This document shows positions 13,430 to 13,792 of a DNA stretch of 64,000 bases, piece after piece. The translations under genes were made by a program, and so were the position numbers. Where the stretch lies: IMG/VR virus record IMGVR_UViG_3300000976_000008, positions 271,223-335,222 of that record, one strand, 5' to 3'. The notes under the pieces are model-generated. The model ran no database searches, was not told where the DNA came from, and saw nothing but the letters and a program-made list of their open reading frames with translations. The stretch's first letter is position 1; every line of letters begins with the position of its first letter. Source of the stretch: a virus. Lineage: Duplodnaviria; Heunggongvirae; Uroviricota; Caudoviricetes.

Positions 13430-13792
13430 CTATCCTTTCACCAATTGGAGCCTACGGAATAGGCGTCGATCGTCGCCTTTAATGGGTGCGGTTGCGAGTG
13501 CTGTCAATTCATTATCGCGGTCTGGTTCGTAGAATTTCTCGAACCGAATACCGGATGATTGCAGTTTCTCAGCCTGGGCATGAAGTGCGTCTTCATGCTT
13601 GACATGGCACAACACCAAATGAGGGTGTGGCGTGTCTGGAGCGATTCCGCCGCGTCTAGAAATCTCGATTGCGGCGTGGATTCCCTGCACAGCTTGTTGT
13701 GCGGGAGTTAGATCTTTTCGGGTGATCACGTATACGTGTCCACCGTACTCTTCATCAACTGGAAGTCACAGGTCTTTAGTTTGTGTCAGCAT
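13430..13792 (-). CDS. PTH2-family peptidyl-tRNA hydrolase with in-frame TGA at codon 9 (13766-13768)
   Basis: HVYVITRKDL...QQAVQGIHAA...LVL...FYEPD...TALA; upstream in-frame ATG at 13792 with AAGGA SD gives MLTQTKDL*LPVDEEYGGHVYV. Confidence 0.85.

Follow-up and report, generated by a model that had tools for sequence, protein, structure and literature searches.

The window analysed in this study, a stretch of 64,000 nucleotides, covers positions 271,223 to 335,222 of the IMG/VR record IMGVR_UViG_3300000976_000008, a 408,349-bp jumbo phage genome rated complete by CheckV. Its minus strand carries, at 13430-13792, an intact gene for a small protein of the PTH2 (peptidyl-tRNA hydrolase 2) fold, and the frame of this gene is interrupted at codon 9 by an in-frame TGA, hereafter called the gate. 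Two tRNA genes with a UCA anticodon, which are opal suppressors, lie 2.4 kb upstream on the same strand. The elements of the gated gene are as follows.

13800..13804, minus strand: Shine-Dalgarno (SD) sequence AAGGA, read from the sequence, with a spacing of 7 nt to ATG 13792
13769..13792, minus strand: leader of ATG plus seven codons (ATG CTG ACA CAA ACT AAA GAC CTG, encoding MLTQTKDL)
13766..13768, minus strand: in-frame TGA at codon 9, the gate; the next base is the C at 13765
13430..13765, minus strand: coding region of the PTH2-fold domain, including EYGGHVYV 5′ of the GTG below, with the TAG terminator at 13430-13432
13727..13729, minus strand: GTG taken by the open reading frame (ORF) caller, in frame and equal to residue 22, a possible but truncating internal start

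The frame beyond the TGA, LPVDEEYGGHVYVITRKDL, is in zero frame with ATG 13792 and runs to the TAG at 13432-13430, and the residues after the TGA begin L P V D E E Y G G H V Y V I T R K D L. The preceding ORF (13812-14066) ends with a TAA at 13814-13812, from which 19 nt, with the AAGGA inside, lead to the ATG. No ATG, GTG or TTG intervenes between the TGA and GTG 13729, and an SD-like GGTGGA (13739-13744) stands 9 nt 5′ of that GTG. The SD, the ATG, the early UGA-C and the frame continuing through it, all described in the initial annotation, were thus confirmed from the sequence. It had also placed a promoter-like motif just upstream, where a sigma-70 scan found no promoter directly ahead of the PTH2-like gene; the nearest same-strand site was 16556-16529.

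The 408-kb genome was scanned for the strict layout of this gene, that is, an SD and ATG, a leader of up to 12 codons ended by a stop, eight start-free codons after it, and a coding-like ORF of at least 70 codons. The only match was the PTH2-like gene itself, and the TAA and TAG controls gave none, indicating that the layout exceeds chance.

The suppressor tRNA genes and the site ahead of them are listed below.

16217..16292, minus strand: tRNA(UCA), opal suppressor copy 1, 76 nt, found by ARAGORN; Rfam tRNA score 63.4 bits versus a gathering score of 29
16351..16428, minus strand: tRNA(UCA), opal suppressor copy 2, found by ARAGORN; Rfam tRNA score 58.2 bits, with G1-U72 and G73
16529..16556, minus strand: promoter-like site TTGACA-16-TAAATT ahead of the suppressor tRNAs, a consensus match only (10/12)

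The two tRNA(UCA) are paralogs with normal cloverleaves and are unlike the phage tRNA-Trp(CCA). An identity as selenocysteine tRNAs was considered and rejected, as they are 76-78 nt long, fold into ordinary cloverleaves and score as plain tRNAs. No terminator-like site was found between the promoter-like site and position 12800. Elsewhere in the window, at 22987-23145 on the minus strand, two adjacent and near-identical tRNA-Trp(CCA) genes were observed, which have an unusual 5′ end (TACGTCC...) and a sequence unrelated to the UCA tRNAs. At 12491-12658, where the initial annotation had seen a large tRNA-like RNA, Rfam gave no family at E up to 0.1.

The genome as a whole follows the standard code. 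Coding density was 0.866 under code 11 and 0.862 with TGA read as sense, more ORFs end in TGA (228 of 570) than in either other stop, and stops having coding-like sequence on both sides showed no TGA excess (TGA 21, TAG 17, TAA 15). The jumbo phage genome is thus not TGA-recoded, and therefore the TGA at codon 9 is gene-specific. Three genome-wide scans for further TGA-interrupted genes showed no excess over the TAG and TAA controls; they were weak tests, which also missed the interrupted cupin-type gene described below.

Conservation of the gate and its match to suppressor anticodons

To relate the gate to its occurrence in other phages, 80 IMG/VR loci encoding relatives of the PTH2-like protein were surveyed. 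The initial annotation had proposed a survey of homologs for a conserved stop, in frame and upstream, served by an SD and ATG of its own, and the result was positive: in 41 of the 80 loci an ATG is followed by one to nine further codons and then, in frame, by TAG or TGA, and no canonical start intervenes before the domain. Four more loci share this layout and additionally carry a canonical start beyond the stop. The commonest leader was M-X-stop (23 of 41 unique gates). Stops at the unique gate loci were TAG in 34 cases, TGA in two and TAA in none, whereas TAA was the commonest ordinary terminator in those loci (TAA 159, TGA 102 and TAG 60 for ORFs of at least 100 aa). The base after the gate stop was A in 22, G in 15, C in 3 and T in 1 of the 41 unique gates. 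The early stop was retained in relatives down to about 35% identity, with the domain intact. Coding density computed with alternative codes for the 6-kb flanks failed to separate recoded from standard-code loci.

The stop type of the gate agreed with the anticodon of the nearby suppressor tRNA. For unique proteins that combine an in-frame stop with a suppressor no more than 3 kb away, TAG was paired with CUA 26 times and TGA with UCA five times, with no mismatches (Fisher 5.9e-6, a value that ignores relatedness), and on the tree the stop type and the anticodon each change four times. Around 68 unique loci, 125 flanking tRNAs were counted, of which 49 were suppressors, and all but one of these (48) lie on the strand of the gene; of the 58 loci with at least one tRNA, 42 had a suppressor as the nearest one. 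By comparison across loci, the gate is conserved and its stop type changes together with the anticodon of the neighbouring tRNA. Ungated homologs were also found beside suppressors, 18 with CUA and one with UUA.

At 11 of the gate loci, the nearest 3 kb held no suppressor. The search was extended in the four large genomes of this set; a fifth record examined is a 17.7-kb fragment, too short to be informative. This examination could have gone against gating; in all four genomes a tRNA(CUA) was found 5-12 kb upstream on the same strand. In detail, the 390-kb genome G002 (98% complete, the record of locus L009) has 48 tRNAs, of which the sole suppressor is a tRNA(CUA) at 170512-170586, 6 kb upstream of the gated gene and apart from the main tRNA cluster (21-75 kb). 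G002 is not TAG-recoded, with TAG ending 108 of 511 ORFs. The other three genomes (G001, G003 and G004) have two tRNA(CUA) genes each, 5-12 kb upstream on the same strand.

The four closest relatives examined, at 72-53% identity, all have TGA gates, and the window represents an opal (UGA) clade with longer leaders. In L113 (72%) the frame is M K N L N D L, TGA, P S D N H G G H I Y V. The leader before the TGA is M K D L in L114 (63%), where a tRNA(UCA) lies 2 kb upstream, and M T Y in L116 (56%). L002 (53%) has a ten-codon leader before its TGA, no start codon after it, and a tRNA(UCA) 0.9 kb upstream. The D-L before the TGA is retained with synonymous codon changes, and so, with synonymous codon differences, is the E/N-Y-G-G-H-V-Y-V stretch that separates the stop from the GTG, so both the leader and the post-stop codons look translated. 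At the position of the window's GTG and GGTGGA, L002 has GTC and GGCGGA, that is, the protein is conserved there and the start is not.

A tblastn search of GenBank phages found relatives in 35 records, and the cultured phages GAP32 and ME3 have TAG gates. In Cronobacter phage GAP32 (L110) the frame is M A Q, TAG, N E K T W I Y V F V R; its coding sequence (CDS) GAP32_397 is truncated, and a Sup-tRNA (CUA) is annotated 2.8 kb downstream of the gated gene. That of Acinetobacter phage ME3 (L112) is M T, TAG, I H E N K K H T Y V F V R, with a tRNA(CUA) 450 nt upstream, and its CDS ME3_195 begins at a GTG inside strand 1. In the Erwinia pEa_SNUABM phages and Serratia phage BF (matches among H15-H22) no gene is annotated at the site. 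The early stop is probably the cause of the absent or truncated annotation of this gene in the GenBank records of cultured jumbo phages.

In Xanthomonas phage XacN1 (L111, ORF364), Stenotrophomonas phage RAS14 (L109) and the locus L001 (2446-3303), an upstream domain is fused to the PTH2-like domain; in the metagenomic fusion P0036, the upstream domain matches Pfam HD. A gate-like stop precedes the ATG of the fusion in L001 (M-N-T-TAG, by a few codons) and in XacN1 (M-K-TAG, by four codons).

Further observations were made at single loci or in small groups. A second in-frame TAG was seen about 100 nt into the gene in the TAG-gated L003, L004, L005 and L008, apparently in the same loop after helix 1, and is preceded by ...T-P-G in L003, ...I-P-P in L004 and ...Y-D-P in L008, which suggests a conserved second gate in this subclade. 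The UUA tRNA mentioned above is of the ochre type and lies 190 nt downstream of its ungated homolog (L018:3505-3593). In L029, a transfer-messenger RNA (tmRNA) gene lies 2.1 kb upstream of the homolog.

The PTH2-fold protein

Readthrough of the TGA yields a product of 120 residues. Its AlphaFold2 model, built with 96 sequences, had a predicted local distance difference test (pLDDT) value of 93.5, and strand 1 comprises residues 19-25 (HVYVITR), while residues 1-18 were modelled with low confidence. The N-terminal tail that holds the gate is poorly conserved and likely disordered. As the initial annotation had it, GTG 13729 falls inside the first β-strand; it corresponds to residue 22, so a start there would remove half of strand 1.

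In a Foldseek search against the PDB, the best 13 matches were all Pth2/Bit1 proteins, with probability 1.0 and template modelling (TM) scores of 0.6-0.69. Consistently, the family profile matched PDB Pth2 proteins at 5.9e-7 and 3.4e-4, and 64 of the 96 family members matched PF01981 (PTH2) at E ≤0.01. The window protein itself had no Pfam match, PF01981 being absent at E up to 1. The PTH2 assignment of the initial annotation is thus borne out for the fold and the family profile, and direct Pfam membership of this one sequence was not confirmed.

The lysine of the G-K motif and the D-A-G-x-T motif are active-site residues of Pth2. In a hidden Markov model (HMM) alignment, neither of these canonical motifs was found in the phage family: the G-K-G-K / T-G-K-K segment of 24bt_A and 2zv3 aligns to s-p-a-q-q, which is two residues shorter and has a conserved Q-Q and no lysine, and D-A-G-x-T-Q with its loop becomes E-P-D-x-x-N with a four-residue deletion. 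An acidic residue is retained, as E89 and D91 are near-invariant in the family. Thus the phage proteins resemble Pth2 (PF01981; PDB 2zv3, 3erj, 1xty and 1q7s) in their fold and, at the profile level, in the R-x-D-L ... Q-x-x-H-A and T-A motifs, but have Q-Q and E-P-D-x-x-N where canonical Pth2 has G-K-G-K and D-A-G-x-T-Q. Because these active-site surroundings differ, the protein is referred to here as PTH2-fold and hydrolase-like, and as a peptidyl-tRNA hydrolase only putatively.

Proposed suppressor-dependent synthesis and alternative explanations

The conserved early stop and its match to the neighbouring anticodon suggest that synthesis of the PTH2-like protein is gated by the phage's own suppressor tRNA, a reading to which we give a probability of about 0.75. 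Ribosomes would start at the SD-served ATG 13792, and at codon 9 host release factor 2 (RF2) would compete with the phage tRNA(UCA), which is presumed to be expressed, charged and able to outcompete RF2. Only readthrough of the UGA would give a folded enzyme, and the early stop would thereby act as a gate that ties enzyme synthesis to suppressor activity. Since the gate lies in a poorly conserved and likely disordered tail, it should make no difference which residue is inserted, as suits a regulatory stop. The initial annotation had supposed that the hydrolase is made when termination fails; this would hold in the sense that termination is overridden, with the phage tRNA(UCA) and not a shortage of RF2 as the agent.

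Several points weigh against this reading. Only two independent switches between TAG and TGA are well supported on the tree, and both agree with the anticodon, which is too few for a sign test. The codon after the gate is often ATT or GTT, which permits reinitiation in some homologs, and in the window GTG 13729, with its fair SD-like GGTGGA, might give a truncated product without readthrough. UGA-C is reportedly a weak, leaky termination context in Escherichia coli, so that host tRNA-Trp alone might yield some product. A strong suppressor should be costly to a phage that closes 228 of its own ORFs with TGA. In addition, the altered 'GK' lysine and 'DAGxTQ' motif mean that hydrolase activity is not assured.

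Termination followed by reinitiation, in which the leader is translated to the stop and the ribosome restarts at or just after it (in the window, at GTG 13729 by way of GGTGGA), would need no suppressor. It is favoured by the homologs in which the codon after the stop is a near-cognate or real start, often ATT, GTG, ATG, ATA or CTG, as in L012 and L016, where GTG and ATG, respectively, directly follow the stop. However, many post-stop codons are unable to start (GTT, GTA, GGC, GAC, AAC and AGA, and CTT in the window), L002 has neither the GTG nor any other start, and a restart at GTG 13729 would cost the protein half of strand 1. Reinitiation should also be indifferent to the type of stop, yet none of the unique gates in the surveyed loci is TAA despite the prevalence of TAA among the terminators of those loci, and it leaves the match between stop and suppressor unexplained. 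We therefore consider it unlikely. A leak in the host, as in the RF2 sensor that the initial annotation had inferred by analogy with prfB, would have host tRNA-Trp read the UGA-C when RF2 is limiting, with the phage tRNAs being incidental. In line with this, UGA-C follows CTG in both the window and L113, and D-L precedes the TGA in three relatives. The family as a whole does not fit such a sensor, as most gates are TAG and thus read by release factor 1, the post-stop base is variable (A or G in 37 of the 41 unique gates), the stop type follows the anticodon of the phage tRNA, and there is neither a prfB-like frameshift site nor a release-factor product; this explanation appears quite unlikely.

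A change of the code of the whole genome, in which TGA would encode Trp or Gly (code 4 or 25), would agree with the presence of a phage-encoded tRNA(UCA), and the L002 homolog P0011 was translated with W at the TGA by one database caller. It is contradicted by the near-equal coding densities, the terminator usage and the lack of excess of coding-flanked TGA given above, and is regarded as very improbable. A single in-frame stop near the 5′ end also resembles a fresh nonsense mutation, in a decaying gene, or an assembly error. However, window positions 13300-13900 are identical to an independently assembled Logan contig of the probable source run (an algae metagenome, depth about 20, probably the same sample), and the early stop is kept, with an intact domain, across the distant relatives described above, which makes decay or error extremely unlikely. 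The sequencing runs listed as carrying this sequence comprised one DNA run, probably that source, and no RNA run.

The enzyme may also be linked to suppression through an action on tRNA esters, either recycling peptidyl-suppressor-tRNA or limiting the charge of the suppressor. An action on tRNA 3′-end esters tied to suppression is suggested by the fold, by the fusions (HD in P0036), and by the place of the family beside suppressors even in the 19 ungated loci. A tentative extension, which we hold to be possible but doubtful, is a feedback device in which the PTH2-like enzyme and the product of the partner gene downstream (described below) would hydrolyse the peptidyl or aminoacyl ester of the suppressor tRNA, so that the suppressor induces its own antagonist or recycler and the level of readthrough is set. 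The family stays by suppressor tRNAs even when ungated (18 CUA and 1 UUA), which would fit a functional link to the tRNA that goes beyond timing. If true, a standard-code phage could carry a stop-reading tRNA without wrecking its 228 TGA terminators.

The proposed gate shares features with known systems. Passage of the early in-frame UGA of prfB requires a +1 frameshift, for which the gene has a slippery site and an internal SD, and the product, RF2, reads that stop. Similar to prfB, the early in-frame UGA of the window gene makes output depend on the reading of a stop, but the domain is reached here without a change of frame, the protein made is no release factor, and RF2 would have a phage tRNA as its competitor. 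The bar minigenes of phage lambda are very short ORFs ending in a stop that yield short peptidyl-tRNAs, the substrate of Pth. Without readthrough, gate leaders are such minigenes, with the difference that here the minigene is fused in frame to the hydrolase gene and paired with a cognate suppressor tRNA.

In recoded phages, recoding was proposed to regulate translation, and a standard-code phage with an acquired TGA suppressor was mentioned (Borges et al., 10.1101/2021.08.26.457843). As in those phages, a phage suppressor tRNA would read an in-frame stop of a phage gene in a standard-code host. In contrast, the window phage itself keeps the standard code, its density under code 11 is not low, TGA is its commonest terminator and is not avoided, and the stop lies in the first codons of one conserved gene family that travels with the tRNA. 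Full-text literature searches found no paper linking PTH2-like genes to suppressor tRNAs or phage recoding, and the phage recoding papers examined, including that of Borges et al., made no mention of a hydrolase or PTH2. Discussion of phage suppressor tRNAs has until now treated them as tools for changing the code of a whole genome, whereas here standard-code giant phages would have a dedicated, conserved target gene for them, with the matching stop in its first codons. The cassette would give suppressor tRNAs a concrete job, as a natural translational switch whose parts change together; it would also account for the truncated or missing gene in the records of cultured phages, and it suggests a connection, so far unexplored, of peptidyl-tRNA hydrolase-like enzymes with the suppression of stop codons.

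Neighbouring interrupted frames and the partner gene

Three further elements lie 3′ of the PTH2-like gene on the same strand.

13396..13425, minus strand: TGA mini-frame M-L-TGA-P-C-R-D-P-P-stop with its own SD, between the hydrolase-like gene and the partner gene
12899..13324, minus strand: downstream partner gene, 141 aa, with the motif G-R-W/F-G-F/Y-H-P-C-D-Y-E ... R-W-x-R-K-x-P-Q-N-R
10835..11248, minus strand: cupin-type gene, phrog_4786 ('cysteine dioxygenase'), with an in-frame TGA at codon 26, 2.2 kb downstream of the PTH2-like gene

The local block thus has three TGA-interrupted frames, namely those of the hydrolase-like gene, the mini-frame and the cupin-type gene. In the cupin, the phrog_4786 match (7e-36) covers residues 13-124, and the TGA is inside the conserved domain. 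Among 98 homologs, Y16, R19 and W20 before the TGA and S28, R30, H32, H33 and W34 after it are near-invariant, and the residue most often found in the TGA column is Trp (27), followed by Phe, Leu and Ile. This second interrupted gene counts in favour of suppressor-dependent readthrough. For the mini-frame, L002 has M-L-TGA-R-P-R-P-P-P-F-S-stop in the same place (3323-3358), and the agreement between the two indicates that both the early TGA and the R-x-P-P end are kept.

The partner protein belongs to no Pfam or PHROG family, and its model (pLDDT 85) had no Foldseek match in the PDB at E up to 0.001, the best VIA-align Z of 4.7 being not meaningful. The partner gene is found directly 3′ of the PTH2-like gene in L002, L003, L005, L008, L009, L011 and L016, and the partner is fused to the C-terminus of the hydrolase-like protein in P0040, P0099 and L016.
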